Positions 27,701 through 49,700 of a stretch of DNA of 64,000 nucleotides are shown in pieces; within the stretch, counting starts at the first letter, position 1; every line of letters starts with the position of its first letter. This DNA comes from Amphiscolops sp. MND2022 (taxonomy: Eukaryota): the NCBI GenBank assembly GCA_964187785.1, contig OZ076409.1, positions 62,994,001-63,058,000 on the forward strand, written 5' to 3'. The notes under the pieces are model-generated. The model was not told the origin of the DNA. It saw nothing but the letters and a program-made list of their open reading frames with translations, and did no database searches. Made by a program: the position numbers and the translations under genes.

Positions 27701-29078
27701 ATTTTTCTGAAAATAATCAATGAGGAAACGTAGAAGCTTGCAATAACAAGCCTTCATTGTCGATATGGAAAAAATTTGAATAAAAATCGGTTTCTATACA
27801 CTTTGAGTTGCGGGCTTGAAATGAACCTTCGACTTGGAATCAATCAGATAATTCCTCTGATCGTTTTTTGAAAAGTAATTCCAAATTTATTCAGCATGTA
27901 AGATTTTGAGTTATACTATTCCGATGACTCCGAATGAACAAACTGCTGCACAAAACCAGAAAACTTTGTTTGAGTTTTTTCTCCCGATTGTCATGAAAGC
28001 TGGAAAGCGTTTTACTACAGAGGAGACGGAGGTTCGAATCTTATCTGTTTCGATGTTTCATTTATTTCCAAAGTCCGAAAACAGCACGCTATATCCGAGT
28101 TTTTGACGTTATACCCGAAGTAAATCGCGTTTTACTAAGGAGGATGTAGCTTCGGATATTATCAGTTTTGATGCTTCGTTTCCTTCCAAAATCGAAAGAA
28201 AAGCACACTATATCTGATTTTATTTGATCTTGAATCCGAAGTAGTTGAGGTTTCTGGTGCGAATGAAAGCAAAAAGTCTCTTAGGCCCAGAAATCCAAAA
28301 TTGCGAGTTTTCCGGAAGGGCCCTCCCTCCCTTTTAAATTTTAACAGTATTTGCTTTCTTCTGTTTTCTTTCTTCTGACAAGTAGTTTTCGAGACGATTT
28401 TGATAAACTTCAAAAACTTCCAACATTGCCCAAAAATACGAAATGATGAAATTGTTGATAATTCGATTCATTTCCAAAGCAAAAACTACAGTTGTAAGTC
28501 ATCAGAACACGATAACATTTTCCTTTGGAGATTTTTTCCACAATTGTCGATTTGAAGTTTTCAATGTTTTGGCCAACAATAATGTCTGTCCTTCACGTGC
28601 TCGCACTCCGCCGCAAGACACCAGTGACCACCAGGTGCAGGAATTTTGGTAGTTTAATCTCATTTCCACCGGTTACCACTGGTGGCCGACTGGAGACGAC
28701 AGGTGAAATGGTTTCAAAAAATTTCAAAACTGGCTTTGCTGATATGCTTGGCTTTTTGAACTTTACTTGTCGACGTTTCTTAGTTTTCATGGTATAGAAA
28801 CATTTAATCATTGGTTTCTAAAGATTTATTGTTCGTTTTTGAGAATTACTATAAAGACCCCGCTTGCATTAAATTCGCTTTTCAGCACCACTTGAAAGGT
28901 TGACTTTTGAGAAAAAAGGATTAGAGAGGTATTTGATGCAACAGTGAAACTTTTACCCAAAAACTTTCAAAAGAATCCCCCTTTGGTTTTTTGGTACTTT
29001 CAGTTTTAAAAAATGTTTTTAAGCCCAATTGGCTCCCTATAAATTTTGGAGTACTGTCGCACGCATGGGTGAAATTAG

Positions 29079-29084
29079 TTTATT
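29079..29084 (-). terminator. Predicted polyadenylation signal AATAAA in the 3' LTR
   Basis: The only minus-strand AATAAA I found in the LTR, about 25 nt from the LTR end. Confidence 0.5.
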
Positions 29085-29694
29085 AGTTTTAATCTGTCAA
29101 GTCCTTGTTTGCATTTTACAAGGTACTATCTCGCGACGGTTCTGTTATTGATTTATCAAGTATAAGTCCCAACAAATAAATTAGCAACTTACTGATAAAG
29201 GGGTGCCTTGCGTGTACGTGCGAACAAAAGAAATTGCGTGAGTCGCGCAAGGCGGTGTTTGTAAATGAGCTTCCCGTTTACTGAAAATGTATGGTGAATA
29301 AATATGTTTAATTACGAATGAGTTGAGAATATTGAAAGTGAACAATTTCTGGACATAGCAATATTTCCTTCAATTGTTACAAATCTCAGATTAATAAAGA
29401 TTACAACTTCACTTTACAAGAAGTAATATAACTTTTACAATTTATCATTTAAGAAAATGAAACTATTTACAAATAATAAGAATTTCCCTTTTTCTTCGGA
29501 AATCTTTTTCTCAAACAAAGATTACAAATCCGTACTATTTTAAACGGAAGAGTTTTGATTTAGATGTCTCTATTCAGTAGAAAGTTGAATAGCATTAAGA
29601 CTTTTTCATAATATGACACTTTAAAACTTCAATCATCCCTTTTCTTATGTGAGTTTATGTAATTTCAACCTCATAGAAATTTAGTTCTAATAAG

Positions 29695-29907
29695 AATAGT
29701 CTAAGCTAAAGTTTGGTCAACCGCAGAATTGAAATCAGCGGAAAATAATCTAAGGTAAGATTTTGTCAACCGCAGAATTGAAATCAGCGGAAAATAGTCT
29801 AAATTAAGATTTTGTCAACCGCAGAATTGAAATCAGCGGAAAATAGTCTAAGTTAAGGTTTTGGAAACCGCCGAGTTTAAATCAGCGGAAAATAGTCTAA
29901 GTTAAAG
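29695..29907. repeat. 49-bp tandem repeat (about 4.3 copies) inside the 3' LTR
   Basis: ccgc cores at 29721, 29770, 29819 and 29868 (period 49). Confidence 0.9.
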
Positions 29908-30684
29908 TCTCAGAGAGAATGAAATCTCTACTGAAAGGTCTAAATAGTCAGACTCACCAAACCGGAGACGAAATTGAAGAGAAATTTCTAAGTTAGAAAT
30001 TTCTTGTAAGGGAAGATTGGTTCTGGAAGTTGAAGTTAAATCAAGGATGAGTGGAGAAATATTCTAAGATGCAAGGGTATGATTAAAAGAGAATTATTGG
30101 ATCTGAGTTATTAAGCAAGAAGTTTTGTTGAGTTAAATAGCAATCGGAATTGAAAGTGAAGGCGAGAAATAGACTTTCTAAGTCTGAAGGGGAAGATAAT
30201 AGTAAAGGGAGAGGAAAGGGGGTAAAGTAAGAAAGAAGAGCAGGGGTGAGGGGAGAGAAGTGGAAGAGAAGTGAAGAGAAACGAGAGCTATTAAGTTTAA
30301 GCTCTGTCCGTTTCGATAAGTGTATGTGTGAATGAATCTCCTCGCCTGCGTTGGCCGTATATATACAGCCAAGCATTTCTTATCGTGCGCTGCGTAGCAG
30401 GCATGGCTTATCTTTCACCAATCATAGTTGGTTTCATATTTCAAATATACGCGGTATAATATAGAATTCTTCACTTGTGCAATTCCTTTCTCGTCACAGT
30501 ACTTCGTCATCATTATTACCATCGTTATGGCCGCCGCCTTATGACCGCCATCTTTATCTACAACTCTCTCTCCCATAAACAAACGTTAGTTCTAGTTCAT
30601 GTTTGTTTCTGTATTTGTTAGTTAAATATAGACTGCACTTTAGCACCTAATTATGTTTGTTAAAGCGTTAGTCATAACGCGACA

Positions 30685-30696
30685 GCTCACCCCCCT
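30685..30696 (-). promoter_or_regulatory. Polypurine tract of element 1 (AGGGGGGTGAGC)
   Basis: G-rich tract directly abutting the 3' LTR start on the minus strand. Confidence 0.8.
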
Positions 30697-30721
30697 GGCA
30701 GGATGAAAGAAAATAAATGAG

Positions 30722-31660
30722 TTATGGGTCAGACTGAAAGAAGGGGGAGTTATGTAGCGCGAGTGACTGAGGGGAAGGTTCCTTAAATTTGATTCTAAAT
30801 ATTATAGAGTCATTGTTTAGGAATGCTTCTCTGAAGTTGACAAGTAACTTCGTATGAGGGATGAAGTCTTCTTTGAGGAGGTTCGGGTGCGTGTAGAGAT
30901 TGTGAAGGGTATCTTCGTGGTTGTGGGGGTTGATTGGGAAAAGTGCGGACCACTTGTTGCCTTCGTCCTTCTGATCAAGGAATTCGACTTCTACTGTTTT
31001 ATCAAAGGGCCATGTTTGTGGGTGAGTGAAGTCGCTATAATGAAGTTCACAGCTAATAGAAGAGTGGGTCCCACGGAAGATGTTTATCCCGTAAGGGAAT
31101 ATTCTGAAGGAAATTTTGCAGCCTGATAGGTATGTTGGGTAAATAGGGCTCGCGAAGCTGTTTTTGATGTTGTGAAAGGGATCGTCTGGAGAGGTCCTTG
31201 CTTTTCGGTAAAGTGTGGAGAAGGCGGAAACTTGCCAAGTGATAAAATCTTTACCGTTCGCTTCAATCTGGCTCGCTCGGTTGAGGAGGGAGCTTTGGTG
31301 TTTGATTGTCGCTCGCAAATCGAAGATAGTGACTTCCAATTGTTGACGTTTATCTCGTGCCTCTTCGATTGAGGTACATAGCAGTTTGATTCGGTTTTCT
31401 AACTTCTTTTGGGGTTGATTAATGTCCGTTAAAGGGAAGGACTTTCGGAGCGGTGTGCTTTTTGTTCCCTGGTTATAGGTACTAGTTGATTTCTCCCATT
31501 CACTAATCCACATATTTAGTCTTTCCACTCCTTCGAGGTTTGCATGTTCTTCTTGATCGTTTTCTTCAGGCATAGGTGGCCAGTCGGGGTTAGGGATCGG
31601 TAGGTAGGGTTTGTGTTTTGGGATGAAGGGGGTGGCATTTGGGTTTAATTTTTGGCTCAT
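30722..31660 (-). CDS. PAM2 motif + coiled coil + TRAF-type MATH domain protein (312 aa), RING-less TRAF-like
   Basis: N-terminal KLNPNATPFIP matches PAM2; heptad region; ITWQV..F, SPIY..GCKISFRIFPYG..RGTHSSI, WPFDKTV..LDQ, FIPH..L and FLNNDSIIFR match TRAF-C motifs. Confidence 0.88.
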   Translation of the reverse strand: MSQKLNPNATPFIPKHKPYLPIPNPDWPPMPEENDQEEHANLEGVERLNMWISEWEKSTSTYNQGTKSTPLRKSFPLTDINQPQKKLENRIKLLCTSIEEARDKRQQLEVTIFDLRATIKHQSSLLNRASQIEANGKDFITWQVSAFSTLYRKARTSPDDPFHNIKNSFASPIYPTYLSGCKISFRIFPYGINIFRGTHSSISCELHYSDFTHPQTWPFDKTVEVEFLDQKDEGNKWSALFPINPHNHEDTLHNLYTHPNLLKEDFIPHTKLLVNFREAFLNNDSIIFRIKFKEPSPQSLALHNSPFFQSDP

Positions 31661-32238
31661 TGTGCAGATATGGATCTTAAGGGAACTGTCAGCCGCTGTC
31701 CCTTCAGTGCAGGGTTCTCAATAGTGTATTCTTGTCTTTTGTTGTCCCAAAAGACGATTTTCCAGGTTGAAAACTGTGGGAGTAGAGAATACTTTAGGTT
31801 TGCGTTAAACCTAGGTTTTTTAACGTATCTGGCTTTTCTAGTGAAGTATTCCCTTTTATGTTGCTTATGTAAGGGTGCTTCATCGGCTATCTCGTTGTTC
31901 CATTCATGATAGTGTTTTTGTGGTGTGTTTCTTCTGATGTCCTTTCCACCAAATCTAGGAGGATGTTGTGTTGACGGGATTGGTGGTATGTCTCCTGTGA
32001 ATGACAAAGGAAAGGGGAGTTGGTCGGATGGCGTTGGTGTGAAGGTTGGAGTTGGAGATTTTGAGGGTGATGATGGGACCGTTGAGTCAGGGGGGTCGGG
32101 AAGGAAGGTAATTGTTGTAGACGAGTCTGGTGTCAAAAAGTCTGAAGGAGATAGGGGTTCGATTTCTAGGTCACTTTCTGGGATAGGATCCAGGGTATCG
32201 TCGTCCAGGCTTGGTAGGTCGAATAGTGGTTCTAGATT
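31657..32238 (-). CDS. ATG-less ORF/exon (193 codons; acidic Pro/Ser/Thr-rich, then basic region), probably spliced to the env N-terminus
   Basis: The frame opens immediately after tttacttttAG (32239); it contains no ATG; its stop overlaps the next ATG (ATGA). Confidence 0.65.
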   Translation of the reverse strand, partial: NLEPLFDLPSLDDDTLDPIPESDLEIEPLSPSDFLTPDSSTTITFLPDPPDSTVPSSPSKSPTPTFTPTPSDQLPFPLSFTGDIPPIPSTQHPPRFGGKDIRRNTPQKHYHEWNNEIADEAPLHKQHKREYFTRKARYVKKPRFNANLKYSLLPQFSTWKIVFWDNKRQEYTIENPALKGQRLTVPLRSISAQ

Positions 32239-32284
32239 CTAAAAGTAAACTAATGAATGAATGAACTTGAAAATGTTTTTGGCT

Positions 32285-34432
32285 TTATATTGGAGCTACG
32301 AAGCTCTGTACTGAGGGATAAAGTGATTCTTCCTTATTCTTCAGTGCTTGGAGTTCTACTTCTTTTCCATTATCTTCAGTTTTCGCGTTTTTATCTTCAA
32401 CGCTATCCTCGTAAGGGGCCCGCGGGGTGAATACAGAAGTTAAAACTGAAGTAAAGAAAAGATTGTACGAAGCACTGAGCAATGTTTTAGTGAAGCTCAG
32501 TGTATTACCTGTGAGGTGACGAAGTTCAAAGTATCGGAAGACGAGTACCGTGATATCTATTACGAACTTAATGAAAAGAAAGGCGCCAAAATACGCGCCG
32601 CAGAGTTCTAGTACGTAAGATATACTTCCAAATGTTTCAAGGAACTGATTTTTGAAGTAATCGGGTGAGATCATGCCGTCAACATAAAAATCTGTACGGG
32701 GTGCATAATACGCGAAAGATTCAGGTCCACTATGGGCCATTGAGGGTGTGATGAGCTCACGTGAGAACTTCTGGAGGGCGTTGCGAGACGCTGCGCTGAT
32801 GAGGATGTTGTCCCAAAATTCTGAGAGTTGTTTAGGCGTATACATTCCCGCGTCTTGTGAACCAGGGAAGGATCTAGTAATCATTGGTTGTATGTCTTTG
32901 GGTCCGAAGATAGCAGGTCGGTCGCGATGTTCGGGTGAAGGAGTGAGGGTAAACCAGGAGTCTTTGTCTTCCATATCCAATTGAAAGAGGTTCTTAATGC
33001 GATCGCTGCAATTTTGGGCGTTCGCGTTAGGATAGGTCTGTCGGGTGATTGGGTCCACGAAGGCAACCACTCCTTTGTAGAAGATGGGTATGCGGTCGTA
33101 GCATCGGTTCATCGTGTGAAGAGGTGAGTGGGATTCCGGGCAGTGGTAGAGCCAAGCGAGGCTGCCATCTGTGTTCAGGAACATTGAGCGATTTCCCGTG
33201 AGCATGTATCCGGCGAGGCGAGGATTTTCCACTGATAGCATCAAAATAGTAAGGATTTGAGTTCTTTCTTGTTCGCATTGTGCTTTGAGGAGCTGGATTT
33301 CTGAAGCTTCGAGGAGACGAGTGCTCTCAAAGAAGAGATAATCAAGCTTTGTCCCTTGGTGTAACTCGTAATCCATGTTGAGGTAATGAGGTGTATTAGG
33401 GTTGGGGTCGCTCGGGCCTCGAAAGAGGTGGAGTCGGCCATTACCAGAACCATCTTCGGGTGAATAATATTGTAGTTTAGATGTCTCTCCCATGGAGATG
33501 CCGAGTCGTCTGCCGGACGTCATGTCGAAGCCACCAAGTTGGATTGAAACGTACAGGGATTCGTAGTTGGTCGGGTATACATCGTCTGGTTTGTTGCAAT
33601 ACTTTTGTGGTCTGTTGTAGACTTCGAATAAAAATTTGGTAGTGGAGTCGTTGCCGCTTACGATATAGTAGTTAGATCCGTGTTTGATCATGTTCACGAT
33701 TTCTTTCCTATGTACTGCAAGCACGCAATTATCGGGTTCCGCCCATGTGTAGGCGTATGGGTCCAGTGACGTCGTTTCGCAACCTAGTTGTTCTAAGGGG
33801 CAGGGAAGGACCATCTGAAACGGAGTCAGGACTTTTCCATCTCGAGTTTTTACTGATAATTCAGCATCTTGGATGTGAGATTCGAATGTTTCTCTTTTGA
33901 TCCAGCCACCTGTCTTGCATTCATTTCGGGTATCTGGGTCGCGTACACCGTCCCAACCCTTTCCGTATTTGGCGTTTCTCGTCTGTACTTGTTTCACTCC
34001 TTTCTTAAATTTGAGGGGTTGTCCATGGATTATGACTTCTTTGCCTTCACCCATTGCCTTGCAGGTTTCGGGTGACAGGGAAAGATCGCTGGTGATTCCG
34101 TCGTGTAGGATTGACATACTGGAGTGGTCGTGATAACCACAATGCCATTCTTCACTCTGATGTTTCACACGGCACATAGTGGCGTTGATAGTGCGGCGGA
34201 AATGTTTAGTGTATAACGTTACGCTCGCACGACTTACCTCTAAGTTTTCAGGTGCCACATTGCATTGTTCAACTTGATTCAATGCGTAGAGTTTATTTTG
34301 GGTCATTTCGCCGCAGTCGAAATGAGTTACTCGCAGTTTTTTAGCAACGCTAGCGAGGTTTGGCGTTGGACGTTGTAATATCACAACGGGCGCGTAATGG
34401 GCGCATAAAAAGAGTAAGTAAAATAATTTCAT
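32285..34432 (-). CDS. env: Env-like fusion glycoprotein (715 aa), chuvirus/Jingchuvirales glycoprotein-like
   Basis: N-terminal signal peptide; Cys pattern HFDC..ALNQVEQC..CRVK..WHCGYHDH..PETC; C-terminal transmembrane segment (CGAYFGAFLFIKFVIDITVLVF); splice acceptor TTTCAG 2 nt before the ATG. Confidence 0.85.
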   Translation of the reverse strand: MKLFYLLFLCAHYAPVVILQRPTPNLASVAKKLRVTHFDCGEMTQNKLYALNQVEQCNVAPENLEVSRASVTLYTKHFRRTINATMCRVKHQSEEWHCGYHDHSSMSILHDGITSDLSLSPETCKAMGEGKEVIIHGQPLKFKKGVKQVQTRNAKYGKGWDGVRDPDTRNECKTGGWIKRETFESHIQDAELSVKTRDGKVLTPFQMVLPCPLEQLGCETTSLDPYAYTWAEPDNCVLAVHRKEIVNMIKHGSNYYIVSGNDSTTKFLFEVYNRPQKYCNKPDDVYPTNYESLYVSIQLGGFDMTSGRRLGISMGETSKLQYYSPEDGSGNGRLHLFRGPSDPNPNTPHYLNMDYELHQGTKLDYLFFESTRLLEASEIQLLKAQCEQERTQILTILMLSVENPRLAGYMLTGNRSMFLNTDGSLAWLYHCPESHSPLHTMNRCYDRIPIFYKGVVAFVDPITRQTYPNANAQNCSDRIKNLFQLDMEDKDSWFTLTPSPEHRDRPAIFGPKDIQPMITRSFPGSQDAGMYTPKQLSEFWDNILISAASRNALQKFSRELITPSMAHSGPESFAYYAPRTDFYVDGMISPDYFKNQFLETFGSISYVLELCGAYFGAFLFIKFVIDITVLVFRYFELRHLTGNTLSFTKTLLSASYNLFFTSVLTSVFTPRAPYEDSVEDKNAKTEDNGKEVELQALKNKEESLYPSVQSFVAPI

Positions 34433-34500
34433 TTCTGAAATTCTTCAGTCTTTGACAATCAATCAGGAAAAATGTTTTTTATAGATATGTGGATCCACGG

Positions 34501-34934
34501 TAAGGCCGTAAAAAGGCAAGCCGTAATATCAAACCGGCAGCTTAGCTGGCACGACACTAAGCGGAGGTTAAAATTTTATAGTAGTAACCTCACTACTATT
34601 GGAAAGTGCCTTATGGAAAGATTGTTGTTTTTTGTTTAAAGTATAGGTTTCGGAGTAAGGCCGTAAAAAGGCAAGCCGTAATATCAAACCGGCAGCTTAG
34701 CTGGTACAACACTAAGCGGAGGTTAAAATTTTATAGTAGTAACCTCACTACTGTTCACACGTACCTAAGAGAAGGAGAAGTTTATTTGTCTTTTAGTTTA
34801 GTTTAATGTTATGGATCCTGAAATAAGGCCGTAAAAAGGCAAGCCGTAATATCAAACCGGCAGCTTAGCTGGCACGACACTAAGCGGAGGTTAAAATTTT
34901 ATAGTAGTAACCTCACTACTATTCAAAGAGTGCC
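34501..34934. ncRNA. Three tandem copies of a 97-nt structured RNA motif (cores 34501-34597, 34656-34752, 34824-34920)
   Basis: Near-identical cores separated by divergent linkers; three hairpins, an H-type pseudoknot and a covarying loop-to-flank pairing. Confidence 0.7.
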
Positions 34935-34980
34935 CGAAGAAAAATAGTAAAAGAAACTAACTTCAACCATCTGTGAAGGT

Positions 34981-35325
34981 TCAGCTGTAGTTATCACTGA
35001 TTGATTTTAGACTGGGAGAGTGTTTGTTACGTCTCTGGGCGTCGAGGAAATCGATTAACTTGCTGAGGAGATGAAGGGTCAGAGGGTGAACGTGATCTAA
35101 GTAAGCGATCTCCCTGTAGTCGGTTAGCGCCTTCGCAAGATCTGCTGCTTCTGTCGAGTCTGTGGCGACAGGGATGAGCCAATGTCCCGTTTGATGTGGT
35201 CGGAGGCTGTGGAGTTCAATCTGAAGTGCGGGGGCGCTCTCTTTCCAGGCTATAGAGAGGATCTCAAGAAGTGTGTTTGTTTCCGGGTGACGCCAGAGAA
35301 ATTTGAGTTGTATTTTAAACATCAT
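34981..35325 (-). CDS. Accessory ORF D (114 aa), small-protein family
   Basis: ATGATG start overlaps the last codons of ORF C; motif pattern shared with A and C. Confidence 0.7.
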   Translation of the reverse strand: MMFKIQLKFLWRHPETNTLLEILSIAWKESAPALQIELHSLRPHQTGHWLIPVATDSTEAADLAKALTDYREIAYLDHVHPLTLHLLSKLIDFLDAQRRNKHSPSLKSISDNYS

Positions 35326-35710
35326 AGGTCTCAACTAGGGTGTGAAGATATTTTATTCTAACCTCTTCTTCAAAGGGGTTAGTTACTAGAGTGATATCCA
35401 TAAAATAAACCAAGTCGTCGAAAGCCTTGTCTTTAAGGACGGCGGGGTGTTGGAGTATGTATTGTTGGAACGATAGGAATAGGTAGGCGTATTCCTTGGA
35501 CCCGAAGTGAATAGGGAAGAGGACTAGTGCTTCTTTGTCTTCTGGTGTGAGTATACGGACTTGTATCGCCGAGGTAGTGATCTCGTAAAAGATTGAGTGT
35601 ATTTCGTATTCACCCGTGAGTTGTATGGGTTTCCAAGGAACCGGAGGTTGAAATTGAGTGTGGAAGTAGTACTTATTTCCTCGAAATACAGCAACTGCGG
35701 GAGAGGACAT
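35315..35710 (-). CDS. Accessory ORF C (131 aa), small-protein family
   Basis: TAATG stop-start overlap with ORF B; motif pattern shared with A and D. Confidence 0.72.
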   Translation of the reverse strand: MSSPAVAVFRGNKYYFHTQFQPPVPWKPIQLTGEYEIHSIFYEITTSAIQVRILTPEDKEALVLFPIHFGSKEYAYLFLSFQQYILQHPAVLKDKAFDDLVYFMDITLVTNPFEEEVRIKYLHTLVETYDV

Positions 35711-35931
35711 TAAAGGACTGACTTGGCTCTTGTGAAGACTTCGGTAGGTGTGTTATTATATAGTAGACTCTCCAGTAGTGGGTAGATAGGTGATGCTGGC
35801 ACACACGTGTAGGTTTCACTCTCTTCTTCTGCGATTGCGTAGGCTTGTATGATTATGTTCGGTGTTGAGGGTTCCTTCTGAATATCAGTTATCTGGGAAA
35901 GTCGGTTGTCAATTTTGAATATTATGATCAT
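35710..35931 (-). CDS. Accessory ORF B (73 aa), small-protein family
   Basis: Start overlaps the stop of a 14-codon uORF (ATGA); stop overlaps the ORF C start (TAATG). Confidence 0.6.
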   Translation of the reverse strand: MIIIFKIDNRLSQITDIQKEPSTPNIIIQAYAIAEEESETYTCVPASPIYPLLESLLYNNTPTEVFTRAKSVL

Positions 35932-36172: not shown

Positions 36173-36868
36173 ATGACTTTAAATAAATCAAATTTGTATT
36201 TAGGGATGAGCAACAACGACAACAACAACTATAGCGACTATTACGAAGAATCCTCGACCGATGAGGAGACTACTGCTCCAGGGTCTGTGTCGGGCACTGC
36301 CGCTACCTCTTTGCCGCCACAATCGTCGTCGTCAGCTGGGCCGTCCTCGTCGAGCGGAGCGCGCACCAGTTCTTCTGCTCCCGCGTCATCAGGTTCTCAG
36401 GCAGGGACCTCTGGGGGTGGGTCTTTTGTGGCGTTTGTGGCCCCGAGGACTAGTGGCCCTTTTCCGCAAGCTCCCTCTACCATCTCGCAGGGTGTTTTGG
36501 AGAGCCCTGGGGATCAAAGTTTTATGGGTTTATTTACCCATAGGGATATCGACCGCCTAGAAAACTGGGCTTCATTAACTAGTTCCCTTCAGGGTACCCC
36601 CGGGTTTTCTGTTTCTGGTCCTCCCGGTCCAAATGCTCTAACTAGTTTCTTGCGGGCTAACTGGGGGGCCCGTTGGGAGCAGACTCTCCTGTCCTCTCTC
36701 GGCGAAATAGTCGTCTTCCAGCTGCGAGCCTACATAAGTGGCTACTCGCAGCTGACTAGTTTTGAGAGGGGTCAGTGGACCCGCCTCTATTCATTGTGGA
36801 CAATGGGGGAGCGGGCGGCTCAGCTGCGGCGACTTGCAGAGAAGGGAGGTTTCCTGGAAATTGAGTAG
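36173..36868 (+). CDS. Antisense accessory ORF (220-231 aa; acidic, Ser/Gly-rich N-terminus, helical Trp-rich C-terminus)
   Basis: Long GC-rich ORF opposite to element sense, occupying its own segment with no listed ORF on the other strand; likely ATG at 36206, just after tttag. Confidence 0.72.
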   Translation: MTLNKSNLYLGMSNNDNNNYSDYYEESSTDEETTAPGSVSGTAATSLPPQSSSSAGPSSSSGARTSSSAPASSGSQAGTSGGGSFVAFVAPRTSGPFPQAPSTISQGVLESPGDQSFMGLFTHRDIDRLENWASLTSSLQGTPGFSVSGPPGPNALTSFLRANWGARWEQTLLSSLGEIVVFQLRAYISGYSQLTSFERGQWTRLYSLWTMGERAAQLRRLAEKGGFLEIE

Positions 36869-37420: not shown

Positions 37421-37427
37421 AGTAAGG

Positions 37428-41200: not shown

Positions 41201-42937
41201 TCTCTGTCTCTTTAGAATTGCTCCAGGTTCTAGTTTAATGTTAAATTTTTGTCTGGTTTTCCCTACGTCAAATTTGTGTTGGGAGTATACATCTCTTGCG
41301 TCCATTAGTAAGTCTATTAGGAGAACCAGTTCTTCGTCTGTGAGGTCTGAGTAGCGAAAGTCGAATTCTTTAATGTATCGCACTGCTTCTTTATTTTGAT
41401 ACTGAAGGTAGTACTCGATCAGTCGTTCGTTGTCTTCTTTTGGCCTGAAGATTTTAAATTGCTCATCGCAGGGTGGTTGACAGGACTTTGCGTCGCTTGT
41501 GAAGTCTGTCTCCAGCTCTCTATGTTTGAGATGAAATTGCTCGGAAAATTGTTGTATCTCATCTTCTAGTACGTATTCGGGGTCTCCTCTTGTAGTCATG
41601 GCATAGACATCTAGTTCGTTTCTTGTATAAATTCGGAGTTGTATTTCTGAGTATGCAAATACGTCTTGAATGAGTTGAGTGACGTCTTGCCATTGGAAGT
41701 CTTCTAGCTCTGAGGCTTCCCGTAGCATGGATATAGTTTTGATGCCGCTCATTTTGGCGTGTGCTTTTAGAGTTTCGAGAGATTGAACTAGTAATTGTGG
41801 GTCAATCTTGTCTTTTGATTTTGCTTTCGTAATCAGAACATATATAAATCGTTTCAGAGTTTCGTCCCAGTAGGGTATGGTTTCTCCTTTCTGTGGTTTC
41901 TGTTTTGCGCATGTATCCTTAAGTGAAGGTATTTTCGTTAGGATTTCTTTTGAGAAGCCTTTGGCTGGCTTTAGGTCGGCCGGGACGAAGATGATGATAG
42001 GGTCTGGTCTGCTGAGTATTGTTTTCGAGTTTCCTCCTTCTATTCTGAGGCAATCGTTCATATCTTGTGAAGGAATGGTAGAGTGTAATAGGAAACAGTC
42101 GTTGTATTCTTCGTTTTCGTTTAGGATAGCATATGCGAGTTCTGTCGGGTTTCTAATTTGGTATTTCGGAATTTCTTGGTCTAATACGTCAAGCATTGAG
42201 TATCCGATAGTTCCTTTTACTAAGGTGATTGTATGGTTTTTGTTGTTTTCCATGACGATTGGTAAAGTCTTCTCAAATCGTGTACAGAGGACATTTATGA
42301 AGTTAAGTCCAGTAGAAACTGCCTTCCTGTTCGGTAGGAACGTAGATCCAGGAGGAAATGAGTTATTAGTGTTTTCCGGTGCGAATTTGTAACATCTTGT
42401 CGTCTTTGGTTCGATATACATTGAGTGAGGAATTCGGACTGAGAGAATTTGTGATAGATAGGGGTAACATTTGTTGAGTTGTAGGCTACCATAGCAAAAA
42501 GTATTTATAGGTCTTTTGAGTTCTATGCCAGGAAGATCAAAGTGTATTTTGTTAACTTGTTCTTGGCAGAAATTCATTCCAAGGAGGTTTTGGGTTTTCA
42601 TCTCTGTTATCCAGACTGTTAATGGGAAGTTATGTTGTCCATCGGAATCGTAGTAGAGTTTGAGGGTGATGTATCCCATCATAGGGATGATCTGCCCAGA
42701 GTAATTCCGTGTTGTGTTATTGCTTCTACTAAGTTCTAGGTCTTGTTGAAACTGGCAAAGTTCTCTAAAGGTCCTGTAGTTGATGATTGAAGATGTTGCC
42801 CCAGTGTCTAGTAGAAATTCGATTTCTAAGCCACTATCTTTTTGTGAGTCTCCGGCAGCAAAATAATAAAGATTAAGACTAAATTTTAGAGGGGCACTGC
42901 TGCTATTTCTATTTTTCGGAGACCTTAGTAGTTTAAA
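38108..42937 (-). CDS. pol: Pol polyprotein: aspartic protease, macrodomain, RT, RNase H, integrase (entered by frameshift)
   Basis: FLLDTGA (upstream of the listed ATG) and LLGMNF protease; DLSCAFHQV, FYGLKG and YIDD RT; IHVDSS, HRELCGI and YCDHKPI RNase H; H-H-C-C (GHY..GGH..CVSC) and IHIDH / IVHDRG / NGKVE integrase. Confidence 0.96.
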   Translation of the reverse strand, partial: FKLLRSPKNRNSSSAPLKFSLNLYYFAAGDSQKDSGLEIEFLLDTGATSSIINYRTFRELCQFQQDLELSRSNNTTRNYSGQIIPMMGYITLKLYYDSDGQHNFPLTVWITEMKTQNLLGMNFCQEQVNKIHFDLPGIELKRPINTFCYGSLQLNKCYPYLSQILSVRIPHSMYIEPKTTRCYKFAPENTNNSFPPGSTFLPNRKAVSTGLNFINVLCTRFEKTLPIVMENNKNHTITLVKGTIGYSMLDVLDQEIPKYQIRNPTELAYAILNENEEYNDCFLLHSTIPSQDMNDCLRIEGGNSKTILSRPDPIIIFVPADLKPAKGFSKEILTKIPSLKDTCAKQKPQKGETIPYWDETLKRFIYVLITKAKSKDKIDPQLLVQSLETLKAHAKMSGIKTISMLREASELEDFQWQDVTQLIQDVFAYSEIQLRIYTRNELDVYAMTTRGDPEYVLEDEIQQFSEQFHLKHRELETDFTSDAKSCQPPCDEQFKIFRPKEDNERLIEYYLQYQNKEAVRYIKEFDFRYSDLTDEELVLLIDLLMDARDVYSQHKFDVGKTRQKFNIKLEPGAILKRQRPSKVPLHLREKLEKLLTQLKDADIIREMGDDEEMGSLFVNPIILQPKHDYVKLIIDARYLNSVTDLTNYSWPLEPIQTIMTLINGNIFSVSDLSCAFHQVPLDEPTQKLTSFIIGGKQYTFTRGFYGLKGLPSFFSRMMTIHFEPLIKRKQAITYIDDTLMQAKNKQEMFTVIQEYHNLLRKAGLKAAPDKTLFFLRKVKFLGHVIAAEGIQPVAKRVKDLHNLKSPKTKTEVKSFLGALGFYSCYIKNLHVDSRPFYELTKKDTNFCWNQEHEDLFQEIKKKITEDTVLAIPSTKYPFHIHVDSSNVGTGCILIQQFPEGKRIISFNSRVFAKEEQKMSTLHRELCGIVSALQTYEHYIIGSPFPIYLYCDHKPILYLWGRKGQISPRFFRYQVIISKFPNLKIIWTPGSNLAFPDILSRNVSIEEHKKHQLSHKVIPTDIHFFDEHGTQVHYKIKHEENEETSKNDFYPILYEKGKKRKVLHLQNDGNNFTVNSIYEEPNLPKVESAQSCLDAGRELGKFEELRIRSGTRDSTSDLSQNTYSSINSDTDDEALTDNQSQEINETNYELNTEDPIARNPSLPKNAKAIEHLDLPTNSTEKQKTPTQELVRQLDKLSKEVELNVTTILQEQINDPVLSVVRQWVRTGNKPEPKSPELQHSKGLMRYFQEFDRLSIEGQGNLLCYNEPTDDPTDENLRICLPLSLFLACFRMGHYNDLGGHMGAEKTFLNAKRFYYWPGMHNWICALTQDCVSCQSNKSKQRRNNEVPLEDCETETQVFRTIHIDHKGPLNPPSRGNSHCLLIIDAFSRYLMAYPVRDTGAQSTINAMEKWIMHYGIPQSIVHDRGTAFVNTEFVNWTKEFGITLRPRTAHSPWTNGKVETQNQHIARYWRNFLNESGNNWAQLAAKFAFAHNTSVNYTTGKTPYEIVFCNKPQIPMSLKLGLYRNKNKNCKSQFCQGLPPHCHSENQVKNELLNGLLRPQLSQTYWNEKQPSKRSTHPHMKSAENKQLNHTPTGTDLNLGTTSTLDKRFC
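42847..42937 (-). promoter_or_regulatory. Programmed -1 ribosomal frameshift signal (U UUA AAC + downstream stem)
   Basis: TTTAAAC at 42937-42931 is in the gag frame, one codon before the gag stop. The -1 frame is open through FLLDTGA into pol. Stems GGTCTCCG/CGGAGACT and GCAGCA/TGCTGC begin 6 nt downstream. Confidence 0.88.
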
Positions 42938-44379
42938 GGGCGGAAATCGGCAATAGAGTTCACCGAGTAGTCGGTTTCTAAGAACTGTACTGTGTTGGAT
43001 CTTCCTATGTCATTAGTTTTTGGGAATCTTTGCTCGTAAGATTGAGTTGGAGTGTTGGGTCTTTCGTTTCTGTCTAGTGGTCTTTGAAAAACTGAGTTAT
43101 TTCTTGGTGGAAGAGGTTGTATGTTGCGATTAAAGGAGCTAGACTGGTCTCTGTTGAAGTTGAACGGAGATCTTGCTCTTTGGGGTCCAGGGGAAACACT
43201 TCTGGAGTTGTTAGAATTGTTTAGGAAGGGTCTTCTCCCTTCTTGTGAAAATCTTTGGTTACCAGGATTGACTCTTGTATTCGTAGGTCGGCGTTCTGGG
43301 TTGAAATTTTTTCTTTGTGGTCTATCGTATTGATTCCAGGCAGGGTTTGACTGCATAGCTCCAGCCAGTGCTAGTTGATGTGCCACAGCCATATGTTTTC
43401 TGATTTCTGAATCTGGTAATCTTGGTTGAAATCTAGAGCCATGTTCAGGTCCAGTTCTCTTGTTGTAGTCGTTGGTGAATGTTATTCTTCTTTCTGGGTT
43501 AGCTTCGTTTTGAACCTTCTTCACTTCTTCATCTCTCATCTTCTTTCTGCACCAGTTAGGTGTGTGTCCATTTGTTCGGCAGTAGCCACAGAATCGTGTG
43601 GCCATTCTTCGACCTGTAGCATTAGGGTCTACAGTTTTCTCTACTGCGTTGATTGTGTTATTCATCTGTTCTTTGATTTGTAGTTTGATTCCCTTCAGGT
43701 CGTCTCGCATTTCTTGTATGAGTGGGTCTGAATGTGATTCTCCGCCAGTTAGGGCGGTAGTTACCGTGTAGGAGAGATCTTTGTTTATTATAGCTTGGGA
43801 GAATTGTTCCCAGGTTGCATTCGGGTGATCCATTAAATATTCGTGTGCCTTTTCTCTCAGTTTTGGAGGTCTTAGGCCTCTCAGTGAGTAGTCGATGCAC
43901 CTTTGTCTTCTTTGTCGGTCTTGTGCTGCTCTTTCTGCGTTTCTGTCGTTTTGTGCGACGCCGGCAAGATCATCTGGCCAGCCTTTCCCCACAACAATTT
44001 TGATTCTGTGTAGAAAATTCTTTATCTCTTCTCCATCTCTTCTGGTGACATGTTCTGCTTCCATTCTGTGTCTGAATTTATTTCGGCCATCTGCGAATCT
44101 TGTGATGAACCTTTCTCTGATTTCTTGCCAGGTGTTAGCGTCTGTGATACTTGTCTCGAACCACTCCGCTGCTGGTCCTCTTAGTAGTGTAGCAAAGTAG
44201 GATTTTCTCCTGAAGTTGTAGTCGTCAAGTGCTGCTCCGTTTGCTGGGGTATCACCATGAGAGAAACGGAACTTCTTTTCAATTAGCTGTATAAATTGTT
44301 CAGGATCTTGATCTGGGTCTGTTCCCGTGAATTGGTCTCTGCCGAGGTCTGGATAAGCCAAGTAATTTTGCGCAGCCAT
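42925..44379 (-). CDS. gag: Gag (484 aa) with capsid-like region and CCHC zinc knuckle
   Basis: LLRGPAAEWF...TWQEIRERFITRF capsid-like motif; CGYCRTNGHTPNWC = C-X2-C-X4-H-X4-C; first long ORF after the PBS. Confidence 0.93.
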   Translation of the reverse strand: MAAQNYLAYPDLGRDQFTGTDPDQDPEQFIQLIEKKFRFSHGDTPANGAALDDYNFRRKSYFATLLRGPAAEWFETSITDANTWQEIRERFITRFADGRNKFRHRMEAEHVTRRDGEEIKNFLHRIKIVVGKGWPDDLAGVAQNDRNAERAAQDRQRRQRCIDYSLRGLRPPKLREKAHEYLMDHPNATWEQFSQAIINKDLSYTVTTALTGGESHSDPLIQEMRDDLKGIKLQIKEQMNNTINAVEKTVDPNATGRRMATRFCGYCRTNGHTPNWCRKKMRDEEVKKVQNEANPERRITFTNDYNKRTGPEHGSRFQPRLPDSEIRKHMAVAHQLALAGAMQSNPAWNQYDRPQRKNFNPERRPTNTRVNPGNQRFSQEGRRPFLNNSNNSRSVSPGPQRARSPFNFNRDQSSSFNRNIQPLPPRNNSVFQRPLDRNERPNTPTQSYEQRFPKTNDIGRSNTVQFLETDYSVNSIADFRPLNY

Positions 44380-45395
44380 TGCGAGCTATTGAGATTATAA
44401 AGGATAGAAGATGAAGCAAAGAACAATAAGCCAAAGACTCTATGAGGTATGATACTCTTGGCTTTTGAGAATAACAGCAAAGAGTTAAAGTAAAAATTGT
44501 TTGTACTATGATTCTAATAGTGATAATTATTAGACAGGTCTGACAAATCATAAAATCCTTAATACGCTGCTAGCAAAAATGAAAATAGCACTTCTCGGTC
44601 GAAGTTAGGTTCATTTCCTATATTTCGTACTCTGATTCCACAGTTTAGGGGATACTTACAAATCCCAGTAGTGTTGAGATTATCGTAAAAAGGGTAGTTC
44701 GGGGTATACCAATCCTCCGAGTTAACCCAAAGAAAACCTATGAAGAGTACAGTCAGTCCACTAGGTCTTTCATCCGCTCGTTGAGCCTTTCTTTAACTTT
44801 AGGAAAATAACTACGGCTAGTTCACAGAGGGAGTTACTCTCGTCTTTAGGATTAAGTGCGTGGGGCCCAGATCACTATCATGCAATCACTTGGGTACTAT
44901 CACTAGAATACTAGGTTTCCCACTCGGAATGCTACATAGGTTCCAAGATACCCACTGGGCTCACGGCCTTCAAACAGCCTCCGAGGAGACCTAGGCGGGC
45001 TTTTACTTAATTTGTGTCCGTCCGGACTAGAGTGAATTTCCCAACTGTGCCTTTAAATAAAGCGTATAGAGTCAGTTTCATTCTTGTTTAGGACTGATGG
45101 TAATCTCATAGTATTTTCGTAAAGGTAAATCATTTCTAACAAATGGTTTTGGGGATTGAAAGAAAGAGAGTGGTGCATAAACTCTTCCCAAAGCTGTTAG
45201 GCTGGAGAGATTCTGTTAGAGTATTTACTAGCAGTTTTACGATTTATATAGATTAGAGAAGCCACATATTGAGGCAGTAGGAGAAAGAAGAAAATTAGAA
45301 GTAATGTTAAGAGAAATAAGTAAGTAACCCTTACTTCTGAGAGTAGGGATTCTAACAGATAGCTCATTTACTTCTCTATTACAAGAGAAAAAGTT

Positions 45396-45413
45396 GCCTC
45401 ACTGGTCGCACCA
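45396..45413 (-). promoter_or_regulatory. Primer-binding site of element 1 (TGGTGCGACCAGTGAGGC)
   Basis: Starts with TGG 3 nt after the 5' LTR. Its complement GCCTCAC-TGGTCGC-A-CCA has tRNA 3'-end architecture (T-stem CTCAC as in tRNA-Met(e) or Ile-UAU). The tRNA identity is unresolved. Confidence 0.85.
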
Positions 45414-46055
45414 GTTTGTCGCACGCATGGGTGAAATTAGTTTATTAGTTTTAATCTGTCAAGTCCTTGTTTGCATTTTACAAGGTACTATCTCGCGACG
45501 GTTCTGTTATTGATTTATCAAGTATAAGTCCCAACAAATAAATTAGCAACTTACTGATAAAGGGGTGCCTTGCGTGTACGTGCGAACAAAAGAAATTGCG
45601 TGAGTCGCGCAAGGCGGTGTTTGTAAATGAGCTTCCCGTTTACTGAAAATGTATGGTGAATAAATATGTTTAATTACGAATGAGTTGAGAATATTGAAAG
45701 TGAACAATTTCTGGACATAGCAATATTTCCTTCAATTGTTACAAATCTCAGATTAATAAAGATTACAACTTCACTTTACAAGAAGTAATATAACTTTTAC
45801 AATTTATCATTTAAGAAAATGAAACTATTTACAAATAATAAGAATTTCCCTTTTTCTTCGGAAATCTTTTTCTCAAACAAAGATTACAAATCCGTACTAT
45901 TTTAAACGGAAGAGTTTTGATTTAGATGTCTCTATTCAGTAGAAAGTTGAATAGCATTAAGACTTTTCATAATATGACACTTTAAAACTTCAATCATCCC
46001 TTTTCTTATGTGAGTTTATGTAATTTCAACCTCATAGAAATTTAGTTCTAATAAG

Positions 46056-46268
46056 AATAGTCTAAGCTAAAGTTTGGTCAACCGCAGAATTGAAATCAGC
46101 GGAAAATAATCTAAGGTAAGATTTTGTCAACCGCAGAATTGAAATCAGCGGAAAATAGTCTAAATTAAGATTTTGTCAACCGCAGAATTGAAATCAGCGG
46201 AAAATAGTCTAAGTTAAGGTTTTGGAAACCGCCGAGTTTAAATCAGCGGAAAATAGTCTAAGTTAAAG
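46056..46268. repeat. 49-bp tandem repeat (about 4.3 copies) inside the 5' LTR
   Basis: Unit ...aaccgcagaattgaaatcagcggaaaatagtctaa... with period 49. Confidence 0.9.
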
Positions 46269-46690
46269 TCTCAGAGAGAATGAAATCTCTACTGAAAGGT
46301 CTAAATAGTCAGACTCACCAAACCGGAGACGAAATTGAAGAGAAATTTCTAAGTTAGAAATTTCTTGTAAGGGAAGATTGGTTCTGGAAGTTGAAGTTAA
46401 ATCAAGGATGAGTGGAGAAATATTCTAAGATGCAAGGGTATGATTAAAAGAGAATTATTGGATCTGAGTTATTAAGCAAGAAGTTTTGTTGAGTTAAATA
46501 GCAATCGGAATTGAAAGTGAAGGCGAGAAATAGACTTTCTAAGTCTGAAGGGGAAGATAATAGTAAAGGGAGAGGAAAGGGGGTAAAGTAAGAAAGAAGA
46601 GCAGGGGTGAGGGGAGAGAAGTGGAAGAGAAGTGAAGAGAAACGAGAGCTATTAAGTTTAAGCTCTGTCCGTTTCGATAAGTGTATGTGT

Positions 46691-46726
46691 GAATGAATCT
46701 CCTCGCCTGCGTTGGCCGTATATATA
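46691..46726 (-). promoter_or_regulatory. Predicted LTR core promoter: TATA box + initiator
   Basis: TATATATA (46726-46719) lies about 30 nt upstream of an Inr-consensus TCATTC (A at 46694) on the minus strand. Confidence 0.6.
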
Positions 46727-49700
46727 CAGCCAAGCATTTCTTATCGTGCGCTGCGTAGCAGGCATGGCTTATCTTTCACCAATCATAGTTGGTTTCATAT
46801 TTCAAATATACGCGGTATAATATAGAATTCTTCACTTGTGCAATTCCTTTCTCGTCACAGTACTTCGTCATCATTATTACCATCGTTATGGCCGCCGCCT
46901 TATGACCGCCATCTTTATCTACAACTCTCTCTCCCATAAACAAACGTTAGTTCTAGTTCATGTTTGTTTCTGTATTTGTTAGTTAAATATAGACTGCACT
47001 TTAGCACCTAATTATGTTTGTTAAAGCGTTAGTCATAACGCGACAGTACATTTGCTCTTTTTGAGCCTTAGGCAGGTCGCCGACTCATGCCGTTCCCGGC
47101 TTGTTTTGTAGTTTAAGATTCATAAAGACGCCGACTTATGCGGTTCTCGGCTTGTTTCATAATTTAAGGTTCCCAAAGACTAGAGACATTTTACTTCGCT
47201 GGCAGAAAATTTCAAAGTGCAAGATTTTTAATGTTCGTTTGACCGAAAAGTCTCAGAAGCCTAAATTTCTAAATATTCTATGTAAATTGAAATCTTATTT
47301 TCCGTTTCGCAATGAATCAAAAAACGCAAAAACTAATATATTTTGGATTTTCGGGAGATCTTTGTATAGTTACTCATGCACTATAGTTAACAAGGAAAAA
47401 TCTCATCTAATGCTTGCATATTGATGGTCTAAATTCCCTAATTCAGCACCTAATTCACCGAGTTATCTGACATATGGTTTAAGAAAACAGCATTTTGGGA
47501 CTACTTAAGTGAAGCTGGCTCAGTTCTTAATACAATCCCAGAGCAAAATGTCTTGAAACTCTTGTATAGATCTTACATATTCTCATATACTATTGAAAGC
47601 GTTGATAAGATCTTGCTTCACACAGATCTCTTGACTTTTATGAAATGAATTTTGGTAAGAGTTTCATCAAGAGTGGCAAGAAAATAAATAACTTACGGAA
47701 CAACCAATAGTTTTGTTTACAATTACACTGCTATTGCTCGAAGTACCATCTTCACTATCACAAGGTTTTGAAATTTAGGATCGATTTATTATTGAAATAA
47801 AGCTCGACTAACAGAGGGTTCGTGTGTCGTTTTGTACTTCATCAATTTTTTTGATTTTCTCAATCTGGTCGACGTGACCGTAAATTGTTTAAAATACGAC
47901 GAAAACGATTCAAAGGGTTCTCCTTCTTTCTTTTCATGCAATGTACAACATTTTCTGAATTTTTGATTTCTCCAAAAATGTTTTTTTACTTTTTGACAAC
48001 TTCAGCCCGAAAGTTGTTTTTCAAGACTGTGAGACTATTGTCATCAGCCTTCCAGCATATTTGAGGATAATATAGCCAAAAAAACTCTTCTAGTTTTTGT
48101 TCCTCAACGTAAGATTGTCTTTAACCGGGGCGTCGACAAACCAAAGTTGAGTTTGAAAAACAAGATAGGATCGCTTCATTCAGAATTTTCCAATGATGAG
48201 TGCAAACATAATCTTTGCCAGTCTAGAATATGATTTTCGTGTTTAAGAATTGGTTCCCATTTTACAATGACGTAGTTTAGGTTTATTAACGACTGAAAAT
48301 ACGACAGGATAAATTTGAAAATTCGGCAACGAATAATCCAGGAAACGTAGCTATTATATCGTTCATCTTCGAAGACGCCATCATTCATCTTCATCCTGAA
48401 AGTTTCATCGCCGTCATGAAATGAAAAACTGGCTGGTTATTTTTTTCTATTCTTAATCTTCTAATCTTTCTAAATCTTAATCTCTTTTCTCTTTTTGTCG
48501 AGGACTCTTTCCAGAAAGTTTTAGGAATCAGTCTGAAGATGAGAGTTTGAAGGCCCAGGAGACCAATTCCTTTGTTCCATCTGCTGCCTAGCAGTACAAA
48601 GTGGCTTCACATCTTGCAAAAGAGTAGTGATGAATCTGCACCTTTTTAGAACTAATGTAACCTAGAATGATTTGGATATATTGCAATTTCATTACCGAGT
48701 TTTTTGGCCTTGAAAACTATAAAAAACAATGTAGTGTAAAATTTTTTCGATAGATTGCCCACATATAACATTATCAGTTATAACTTGAGCTGGGTTAGCG
48801 TTTTCGAAAGTAAAAGTCAAAAAATGTTTGTATCAAAATTATATTTGCCGTCCTCCTCAACACTTTTCGTTAAATAAATAGAACCAGTGAAAGTAACAAT
48901 TGTCAGTCTATGAGCCTCAAAATCAAAAAGGCTGCACTAAAAATATTTTCGACACTTTGTGCGGAAATAATTTCGATAAAACTTCCCGCTGAGTTTTTGA
49001 AAATTTTTTGTTCCCGTTGGATTATTTTCTCACGTTCTCTGTGATACATTGTTGCTGATAGGAGGTGTCTTGTTTTGTTTCTTTCTACATACAGAATACA
49101 ACAAATATTGCAAAGACACCGCGCTTGTTTCAAGTTTTGTCGGAATGTAAGTGCTTGACGTCCTACTCTTGGCGTTGATTTTTTCGCGGGCGTAAATTTC
49201 AACTGGAGTGCAGGCTTATTTGATACACCCCACTGTTGGAAAACTTTGGAACAAATCATGCATATGGTTACTTGCCTGGGCAAACCTAACCCAAATTAAA
49301 ACAACAATCTTCTATTTCAGACAAAATATGAGGACCGCCTTTTTACATTGCAGGAAAACACTTGCTAAGACTTGATATCTTATGTTTGTCAAAAATGCTC
49401 GGTCAAGTTGTTTTGGAAAAAATCGACCCAATTTGTGAGTTTGCCAAGTTCGGTATATTTCATCCGTAACAAAAAACGTAATACCAATAGTTTCCAGTTC
49501 ATTCATGCATGAAAAAACCTTTTTTCCAGAAGTTTGTGCAAAAAGGTACGATTAGCAAGTGTCTTTGGCAAAATGCTTTGGTTTTTGGATAAGCGAGCGA
49601 ATTAATTGCAGTAGTGAGATTATTTATTCATACAAACGCACGTATCTTTGCGAAAATTGTCTCGCTAACTGTTCCTTATCGAATGCTTGCTCCGCTACCG

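Follow-up and report, generated by a model that had tools for sequence, protein, structure and literature searches.

The window analyzed here is a 64,000-nucleotide stretch of the Amphiscolops sp. MND2022 genome (assembly GCA_964187785.1, contig OZ076409.1, positions 62,994,001 to 63,058,000 of the forward strand), and it contains a Ty3/gypsy retrotransposon of 17,991 bp that lies on the minus strand, from window position 47045 to 29055; its features are on that strand unless stated otherwise. The element is bounded by two long terminal repeats (LTRs), 1629 bp on the 5′ side (45417..47045) and 1630 bp on the 3′ side (29055..30684), which end in TG...CA and differ by no substitution and one 1-bp indel, and it is flanked by the target-site duplication GTAC (47046..47049 on the 5′ side, matched at 29051-29054). 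An earlier reading made from the letters alone (the sequence-only reading) had described an 18-kb Ty3/gypsy element with near-identical LTRs and an intact duplication, and these boundaries bear it out. The primer-binding site (45397..45413) begins with TGG 3 nt past the LTR and has the same sequence in 8/8 other leaders read; no primer tRNA was found, a tRNA pattern search being blank and the site being absent from the table in supplement 1 of PMC13524379. A G-rich polypurine tract (30686..30696) is kept in 7/7 loci checked. The 5′ LTR holds a 49-bp tandem array, a TATA-like box at 46726, an initiator-like TCATT at 46696 and AATAAA 30 nt before the LTR end, a placing that would imply a very long R region; among seven LTRs checked, the TATA box occurs in three, all of the window element's family, and the initiator-like motif in three.

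The gag gene (484 residues, 42925..44379) matches PF03732 (E = 1.6e-5), and pol (37428..43009), in the −1 frame relative to gag, encodes a protease, a macrodomain, reverse transcriptase (RT), RNase H and integrase. The two are joined by a probable −1 ribosomal frameshift signal (42848..42937), in which the heptamer U UUA AAC (42937-42931) stands just before the gag stop and is followed 6 nt downstream by a stem-loop (fold z = −2.21; 4/200 shuffles equally stable). Compared with solved retroelement enzymes, the RT/RNase H region is nearest to Ty3 (115.8 bits, the next at 86.7), with RT E-values of 2e-32 for Ty3, 1e-22 for foamy virus, 2.5e-18 for the murine leukemia virus type and 3.5e-4 for HIV. 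RT relatives at 41-98% identity all lack names, and named matches begin at about 30%. The TG...CA repeats, short target-site duplication, primer-binding site, polypurine tract and protease-RT-RNase H-integrase order, together with the RT, place the element in Ty3/gypsy.

The sequence-only reading had counted about eight open reading frames (ORFs) beyond gag and pol. All eight are present, and a ninth, absent from its list, lies upstream of gag. This 56-residue ORF (45197..45367) starts 46 nt into the leader and encodes an amphipathic N-terminus, one transmembrane segment (residues 14-32) and a basic tail. The other eight occupy the region that separates pol from the 3′ LTR. ORF A (128 residues, 37034..37420) starts 7 nt past the pol stop. 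The antisense ORF (231 residues, 36173..36868, plus strand) has an acidic, Ser-rich N-terminal half and a conserved C-terminal domain of no known family; it has 95 genome matches, 74 of them without an internal stop, down to 35-40% identity. ORF B (73 residues, 35710..35931) has a stop that overlaps the start of ORF C (TAATG); ORF C (131 residues, 35315..35710) is predicted to form four β-strands followed by helices, with no known fold; and ORF D (114 residues, 34981..35325) overlaps the end of C and shows the same strand/helix order. After a structured RNA repeat (34500..34925) come env (32285..34432), ORF E (193 residues, 31657..32238), which combines a Pro/Ser/acidic N-terminal part with a basic, conserved C-terminal domain, and a MATH/TRAF ORF (30722..31660). 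Of the eight accessory proteins other than Env, six belong to no known family, the 56-residue ORF falling outside the scan behind that count.

The env product (715 residues) carries a signal peptide, 16 cysteines and a C-terminal transmembrane segment, and its match to PF24664 (E = 8e-33) identifies it as a fusion glycoprotein of the Monjiviricetes (chuvirus/gB-like) type. We found 280 relatives, none named among the 120 listed, and no meaningful PDB match by sequence search. The MATH/TRAF ORF (312 residues) encodes a PAM2-like motif, a probable coiled coil and a TRAF-type MATH domain (PF22486, E = 1.7e-8; PF21355, E = 1.3e-7), for which TRAF5 and TRAF4 are the sole PDB matches, and it has neither RING nor zinc fingers. 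The PAM2-like motif is retained in L021, L023 and L024 (L- and P-numbers denote, respectively, the genome loci and the Pol proteins compared with the window element). The host genome itself yielded at least one zinc-finger TRAF match (one among 21 candidates in an exon-wise search, hence a lower bound), which possibly marks the target pathway of the MATH protein.

The small ORFs had been proposed to comprise four paralogs. Profile comparisons relate A to C (E = 4.9e-4) and D to C (E = 5.6e-4), with 0/60 column shuffles as good in either case, so that A, C and D are probable paralogs. ORF B, the fourth candidate, looks alike by eye, but its paralogy is not supported: 59/60 shuffles scored as highly against C, its one match, of 14 columns, is to A, and the C profile found no match to B, E or the antisense protein. 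Structure models of C (AlphaFold pLDDT 75.7, with 1/5 models above 70) and D (pLDDT 80.2) share the order of four strands then helices and several weak PH-domain matches. When 1.84 billion representatives were searched with a C profile, 14 proteins matched; 12 are C-like, and relatives extend down to ~30% identity. ORF C had no match with E < 0.001 in viral structures, the ESM Atlas gave no usable match for the antisense domain or D, and PHROGs were blank except for one match at E = 0.04.

To place these ORFs in a family, we searched the genome with the MATH ORF and with the LTR. The MATH ORF gave 127 scored matches among 499 candidates. Identity is 96-100% for 23 of them, centers on about 57% in large groups and drops to about 34% for a few. 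The LTR query (40 scored of 321 candidates) gave 10 other LTR pairs spaced 16.1-18.2 kb, six pairs 4.7-5.0 kb apart and one cluster at 5.6 kb spacing; by these spacings, at least ten other copies of full-length size are present in the genome. For comparison we took the 3′ halves of 20 close copies, together with 5 loci of greater distance. The 3′ flanks are different in all 19/19 copies where they are readable, and therefore the copies represent independent insertions. Because the LTRs are near-identical, the target-site duplication is intact, many copies match at 96-100% and the flanks differ, the element reads as a young, provirus-like and recently inserted copy of a spreading, envelope-carrying Ty3/gypsy lineage, in agreement with the sequence-only claim of a recently active lineage with a fusogen.

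Counting only the close copies that contain a given ORF, frames are open end to end in 12/16 for A, 14/16 for the antisense ORF, 17/18 for both B and C, 18/18 for D, 17/20 for env, 20/20 for E and 19/20 for MATH. The order pol, A, antisense, B, C, D, repeat, env, E, MATH is retained in four diverged subfamilies (L021-L024). Among these loci, L021 has decayed, and an interruption affects E in L022 and the antisense ORF in L024; L025 is a derivative with deletions. The most distant subfamily read, L024, shares with the window element 75% identity in env, 46% in C and 31% in MATH. The 56-residue ORF has equal length in L026, L027 and L029, and its N-terminal part is present in the most distant family (L028 and L030, loci that end inside the ORF).

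Most of the close copies are 97-99% identical. We measured selection chiefly against diverged copies. The ratio of nonsynonymous to synonymous divergence (dN/dS) against L023 and L022, respectively, is 0.04 and 0.05 for env, 0.06 and 0.11 for A, 0.09 and 0.05 for D, 0.07 and 0.11 for E, and 0.16 and 0.18 for MATH, with 0.03 for B and 0.08 for C against both. The antisense ORF gives 0.17-0.20 against L015 and L023 (L023: 0.20) and is saturated against L022, and the 56-residue ORF gives 0.13-0.20 against L026/L027 (values 0.20 and 0.13). Local protein alignment biases dN/dS downward, and the test was repeated on DNA alignments by codon position: differences from L023 at positions 1/2/3 number 5/4/36 in C, 19/10/55 in D, 49/18/94 in E and 52/37/96 in the antisense ORF. 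By contrast, a 97-residue ORF within the 3′ LTR shows 31/34/37, many frameshifting indels against diverged copies and an open frame in 0/20 close copies, and we rejected it as a gene; a low dN/dS interval that it gave against L021 derived from a brief local alignment of the proteins, and the codon-position test takes precedence. Pooled ratios of nonsynonymous to synonymous polymorphism (pN/pS) among the close copies run from 0.08 to 0.66, with 0.80 for the LTR ORF, and are less clear-cut, as expected of young copies. From the dN/dS values, the third-position excess and the contrast with the LTR ORF, we therefore conclude that the nine ORFs beyond gag and pol are, on this evidence, genes held by purifying selection and not passengers. 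The check that the sequence-only reading had set itself, conserved gene order and dN/dS below 1 in sibling copies, thus came out in its favor: order is kept in L021-L024, and dN/dS of the extra ORFs is 0.03-0.25 against diverged copies wherever synonymous divergence is unsaturated.

Several variants of this layout accompany the family. The copies L015, L017, L018 and L019 are 96-98% identical to the window element elsewhere and carry a diverged antisense block (matching window 36545-36217) with 64-74% protein identity. The block is open over its full length in L015, L017 and L019, and its divergence suggests that modules are exchanged by recombination. Satellites without gag-pol (L002:965-9913, L012:904-9818 and L025:3295-10000) have the same LTR and primer-binding site as the element. 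In L002 and L012, env, E and MATH are open together with a second MATH-like ORF (about 182 residues), which is open in both though their middles are only ~79% alike; L025 resembles them in its front half and has env largely deleted. These derivatives look like helper-dependent elements that are themselves multiplying, and we group with them the six LTR pairs 4.7-5.0 kb apart and the cluster at 5.6-kb spacing. Only the L025 version of the second MATH-like ORF gave a Pfam MATH match (E = 0.008). An extra 176-residue ORF between the antisense ORF and B in L024 (L024:2212-2739) shares 66% DNA identity over 225 nt with the satellites' second MATH-like ORF.

The accessory genes are accompanied by signals that point to several routes of expression. 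The stop/start overlaps B/C, C/D and E/MATH (ATGA) are kept in 6/6 lineages compared, as the sequence-only claim of coupled ORFs foresaw, and suggest termination-reinitiation. Directly before ORF E, a pyrimidine tract and a TAG in phase 0 form a candidate splice acceptor at 32239, its AG kept in 6/6 lineages. Because E lacks methionine in every lineage, is under selection and starts after this conserved acceptor, it is most simply explained as a second exon. The sole strong donor on the sense strand is at 34237, after env codon 65 and also in phase 0. An internal bidirectional promoter was considered for the AT-rich spacer between the antisense ORF and B, but the TATA-like boxes, present in 4/6 copies, stand at differing places. 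The leader holds a GTAAGT at window 44659 on the minus strand, ~750 nt past the primer-binding site, and a pyrimidine-rich AG at 44385, 6 nt before the gag ATG, both kept in 4/4 full-length leaders read; a leader intron is possible.

The structured RNA had been described as triplicated, which holds for the window, where three ~100-nt units (34925-34824, 34757-34655 and 34600-34500) lie just upstream of env and have covarying stems; across copies, however, the number ranges from 1 to 5, with three the commonest. We collected 74 units, 39 of them distinct, and parsed 13 distinct cores, one unit remaining unparsed. Stem 2 pairs with the loop of stem 1 across an A-rich linker and two hairpins follow, so arranged that the 5′ part is a probable H-type pseudoknot. 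Compensatory changes occur at 3/7 pairs of stem 2, where G-U variants point to the sense strand, and at 2/4 pairs of the last hairpin. Rfam returned no match on the repeat and one chance-level match elsewhere in the element. Twister, pistol, hepatitis delta virus-like and RNA polymerase III elements are at odds with its stem order or its internal U-runs.

The macrodomain that the sequence-only reading had placed inside pol is indeed found there, between protease and RT (41600..42040), with TARG1/OARD1 homology over its length (human OARD1, E = 1e-11) and eroded motifs. Macrodomains of this type have a catalytic Lys/Asp pair and a Gly-rich phosphate loop; in the window family the Lys is kept, the G-C-G loop has become A-S-E and the Asp at the catalytic position has become Glu. 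Canonical motifs are present in the sister Pol proteins P0029, P0034, P0035, P0040 and P0066. In an RT tree of 105 sequences (FastTree, without support values), the macrodomain is confined to one clade among the sequences listed, and sister clades without it still show protease. A deeper branch of the same RT lineage (P0061-P0116, 41-47% identity) has no macrodomain and includes one-frame gag-pol fusions of 2,000-2,600 residues, P0079 having ~640 residues before the gag core. A second LTR element in the window (55039-61930; repeats of ~1.8 kb, 5.1 kb apart, 95-100% alike) combines gag-like and protease-like frames with a TARG1-type macrodomain that has canonical motifs and is 29% identical to the one at 41600..42040, and it has no RT frame of ≥120 residues. 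The available text of PMC4695847 and PMC6338049 contains nothing on macrodomains in retrotransposons.

Elsewhere in the window, a dispersed host repeat of ~60 nt starts right at the 5′ flank of the element (47045-47105), and long perfect or near-perfect inverted repeats (17045-17338, 17626-18367, 21268-21451 and 51725-51961) are probably miniature DNA transposons.

Complex retroviruses (delta-, lenti- and spumaviruses) have accessory ORFs around env, an antisense ORF, a spliced second exon and structured RNA. The window element resembles them in its accessory ORFs around env, its antisense ORF, its probable spliced second exon past env and its structured RNA element; unlike them, it has an RT nearer to Ty3 and an Env that is not a class I retroviral Env, and its accessory proteins have no Pfam or PDB similarity to retroviral ones. 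With neither the retroviral-type RT nor the class I Env of complex Retroviridae, the resemblance is best described as analogy, not membership. The gB-type errantivirus is described in a survey (Chary and Hayashi, PMC13524379) as a three-ORF element, and chuvirus-like glycoproteins beside a gypsy pol are reported there. As those elements are presented there, the window element shares with them a Ty3/gypsy gag-pol followed by a separate env of the chuvirus/gB family with signal peptide and transmembrane anchor, multiple copies and recent expansion; it would work like a gB-type errantivirus. It differs in having 3.0 kb with five ORFs and the repeat RNA between pol and env, and two ORFs after env. 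The main text of the survey has 0 occurrences of 'accessory', 'macro' or 'TRAF'. Its prefilter, as stated, took a pol-env gap of ≤1 kb and a region of ≤10 kb, with manual extension by 3-5 kb in some groups.

Burro/GYPSM1 of planarians, as portrayed in PMC6431247, is a giant gypsy element (>30 kb) with a polyprotein of ~4,900 residues, env between gag and pol, and MATH, BIR, BCL2, ankyrin, SUMO-like, dUTPase and env-like domains. On that account, Burro is like the window element in having a MATH_TRAF_C domain, its env-like region is akin to the fusion proteins of mononegaviruses, and in one species the MATH domain stands in a separate accessory ORF, as in the window element. The latter, unlike Burro, has many separate short ORFs on both strands and none of Burro's other domains: the MATH_TRAF domain is there, and the single giant polyprotein with in-frame env and BIR, BCL2 and ankyrin domains is not. 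On these comparisons, the window element is neither a Burro element nor a retrovirus. The Cer1 CERV protein of Caenorhabditis, according to PMC10309623, is an accessory protein made by splicing, with its second half encoded 3′ of pol, and export of genomic RNA depends on it; it provides a model for ORF E, a likeness drawn from the description, and Cer1 as described there has one accessory protein and no viral-type env, unlike the window element. The short ORFs sORF1 and sORF2 of the Drosophila MDG1 group belong, in the account of 10.1101/2025.03.14.642691, to elements with no env, sORF2 taking its place. That account gives sORF2 the same traits as our 56-residue ORF (a position upstream of gag, an amphipathic ectodomain, a transmembrane segment, a basic tail and low dN/dS), whereas ours occurs together with env, is the shorter of the two and lacks a myristoylation glycine. 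Bdelloid LTR retrotransposons, as outlined in PMC5408684, likewise show that LTR elements of invertebrates can capture extra ORFs; a family there usually has a single ORF3 (env, GDSL esterase or DEDDy nuclease). The contrast that the sequence-only reading drew with typical Metaviridae was thus overstated, because Burro, Cer1 CERV, the MDG1 sORFs and the gB-type errantiviruses offer precedents for single traits (env, MATH, a spliced accessory protein, an upstream transmembrane sORF); what stands is the many separate, conserved accessory genes in one Ty3/gypsy element, a combination that we did not find described in the literature searched, which excluded subscription journals and Repbase reports.

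Taken together, we favor a reading, at a probability of roughly 0.6, in which one 18-kb unit would yield about eleven proteins by several routes, including a host-facing PAM2-MATH decoy or adaptor and an Env for passage between cells. The genomic RNA would encode the small membrane protein, Gag and, through the −1 frameshift, Gag-Pol. A spliced RNA using acceptor 32239 would supply ORF E as its second exon, with the best donor candidate after env codon 65; ribosomes finishing E would reinitiate at the overlapping MATH start, B, C and D would be coupled likewise, and the antisense protein would come from an opposite-strand transcript. The tandem pseudoknotted RNA may govern env, in that it either lies at the 5′ end of a shorter RNA and marks it or brings in ribosomes at an internal site. 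Env, perhaps aided by the 56-residue membrane protein, would carry particles between cells. The PAM2-coiled-coil-MATH protein, in effect a TRAF minus its ubiquitin-ligase half, would most likely be a decoy or adaptor linking TRAF-binding partners with poly(A)-binding protein (PABP). If any of the proteins is a Rev/CERV-like RNA-handling factor, the best candidate is ORF E, whose C-terminal domain is basic. A, C and D may form an expanded family of small adaptor-like proteins. The macrodomain would stem from a single capture in a sub-lineage, and in the window family it has probably ceased to be a full hydrolase. Immune modulation by the accessory proteins is plausible.

Several observations weigh against this reading. 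Gag and pol are both present, as the sequence-only reading had it, but a frameshift at about 38.25-38.3 kb disrupts the pol of the window copy within the C-terminal region of integrase; the frame is continuous at this site in 15/17 loci spanning it. The close copies that we compared are the top MATH ORF matches, which biases the sample to young, intact copies. The PAM2 score (16.1 bits) lies below the Pfam cut-off of 20, and the folds of C and D reach best Z scores of 4.0 and 4.9, with none ≥5 among 48,161 chains. The macrodomain is the weakest of the proposed 'modulators', because its Gly-rich loop and catalytic Asp position are altered here and canonical in sister families, leaving the window family without an intact Lys/Asp pair and Gly-rich loop. 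With regard to the splice signals that had been claimed, the acceptor stands but the donor is uncertain: that at 34237 reads GTAAGT in 5/6 lineages and a weaker GTTAGC in the most distant, L024, and it may be a coincidence. Its use would also add a signal peptide to E, an awkward fit for a protein proposed to bind RNA in the nucleus. A splice donor in the 56-residue ORF was rejected as unconserved (GTA, GTT or GCC). In the repeat RNA, L023 and L024 supply most of the covarying positions. Stem 1 hardly varies and has no compensatory change, so that a two-state switch is equally allowed by the data.

The strongest competitor accepts the accessory genes as real but assigns them to replication of the element itself (RNA export, assembly, cell-to-cell passage or copy-number control) and not to action on host immunity. 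We consider this less likely than the favored reading. It draws on the large share of accessory proteins without a known family, the eroded macrodomain, the single zinc-finger TRAF match in the host genome, and the precedents for replication roles in Cer1 CERV and MDG1 sORF1/sORF2. It accounts less well for a MATH domain that is of TRAF type without the ligase half, and for a second MATH-like ORF open in L024, L002, L012 and L025, which suggests repeated selection for a host-facing domain.

Two other explanations concern where the extra genes came from, and both are far less probable. That the 3′ gene block came whole from some unrelated virus and was joined to a gypsy gag-pol by recombination, so that the complex layout was acquired and did not arise in place, would fit an env from a negative-strand-virus glycoprotein family, the blocks swapped between subfamilies (the L015-type antisense block in DNA otherwise 96-98% identical) and the gag-pol-less derivatives that hold the env-E-MATH block alone; we nevertheless regard it as very improbable, given that the viral structure and phage libraries gave no match, three of the ORFs resemble in-place duplicates, and gB-type env, as reported in PMC13524379, is old and widespread in Ty3/gypsy. 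Lowest of all we rank the possibility that the extra ORFs are passengers, captured fragments that a transposition burst carried along and that are open only through the youth of the copies. The near-identity of most close copies does mean that their open frames prove little, and their pooled pN/pS for the antisense, B and MATH ORFs is 0.4-0.7, but order, length, junctions and low dN/dS hold across subfamilies at synonymous divergence of 0.5 to >2, and the LTR ORF decays while the extra ORFs persist.

A bolder version of the favored reading, which we advance tentatively and at somewhat less than even odds, is that a Ty3/gypsy lineage has independently reached the grade of a complex retrovirus, with a spliced factor of Rev type, an antisense gene, an internally controlled env preceded by tandem pseudoknot RNAs of a new class, an expanded small-protein family of undescribed fold, a TRAF-PABP decoy, a class III fusogen with a FAST-like membrane protein, and helper-dependent satellites that lack gag-pol, retain env and have gained a second MATH gene. 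Accessory-gene complexity is usually held to be a property of vertebrate retroviruses, and the size filters given in PMC13524379, the widest-ranging survey of env-bearing gypsy elements in recent years, would tend to miss a layout with 3.0 kb between pol and env. The element offers several new objects for study, namely a small-protein family without a known fold, a covarying tandem RNA before env, a PAM2-TRAF hybrid and gag-pol-less satellites. As a living family with many recent copies and graded subfamilies, it may allow the gain, duplication and erosion of accessory and antisense genes and RNA elements to be traced outside the Retroviridae. If the bolder version is true, it would represent an independent origin of complex-retrovirus regulation, accompanied by helper-dependent satellites.

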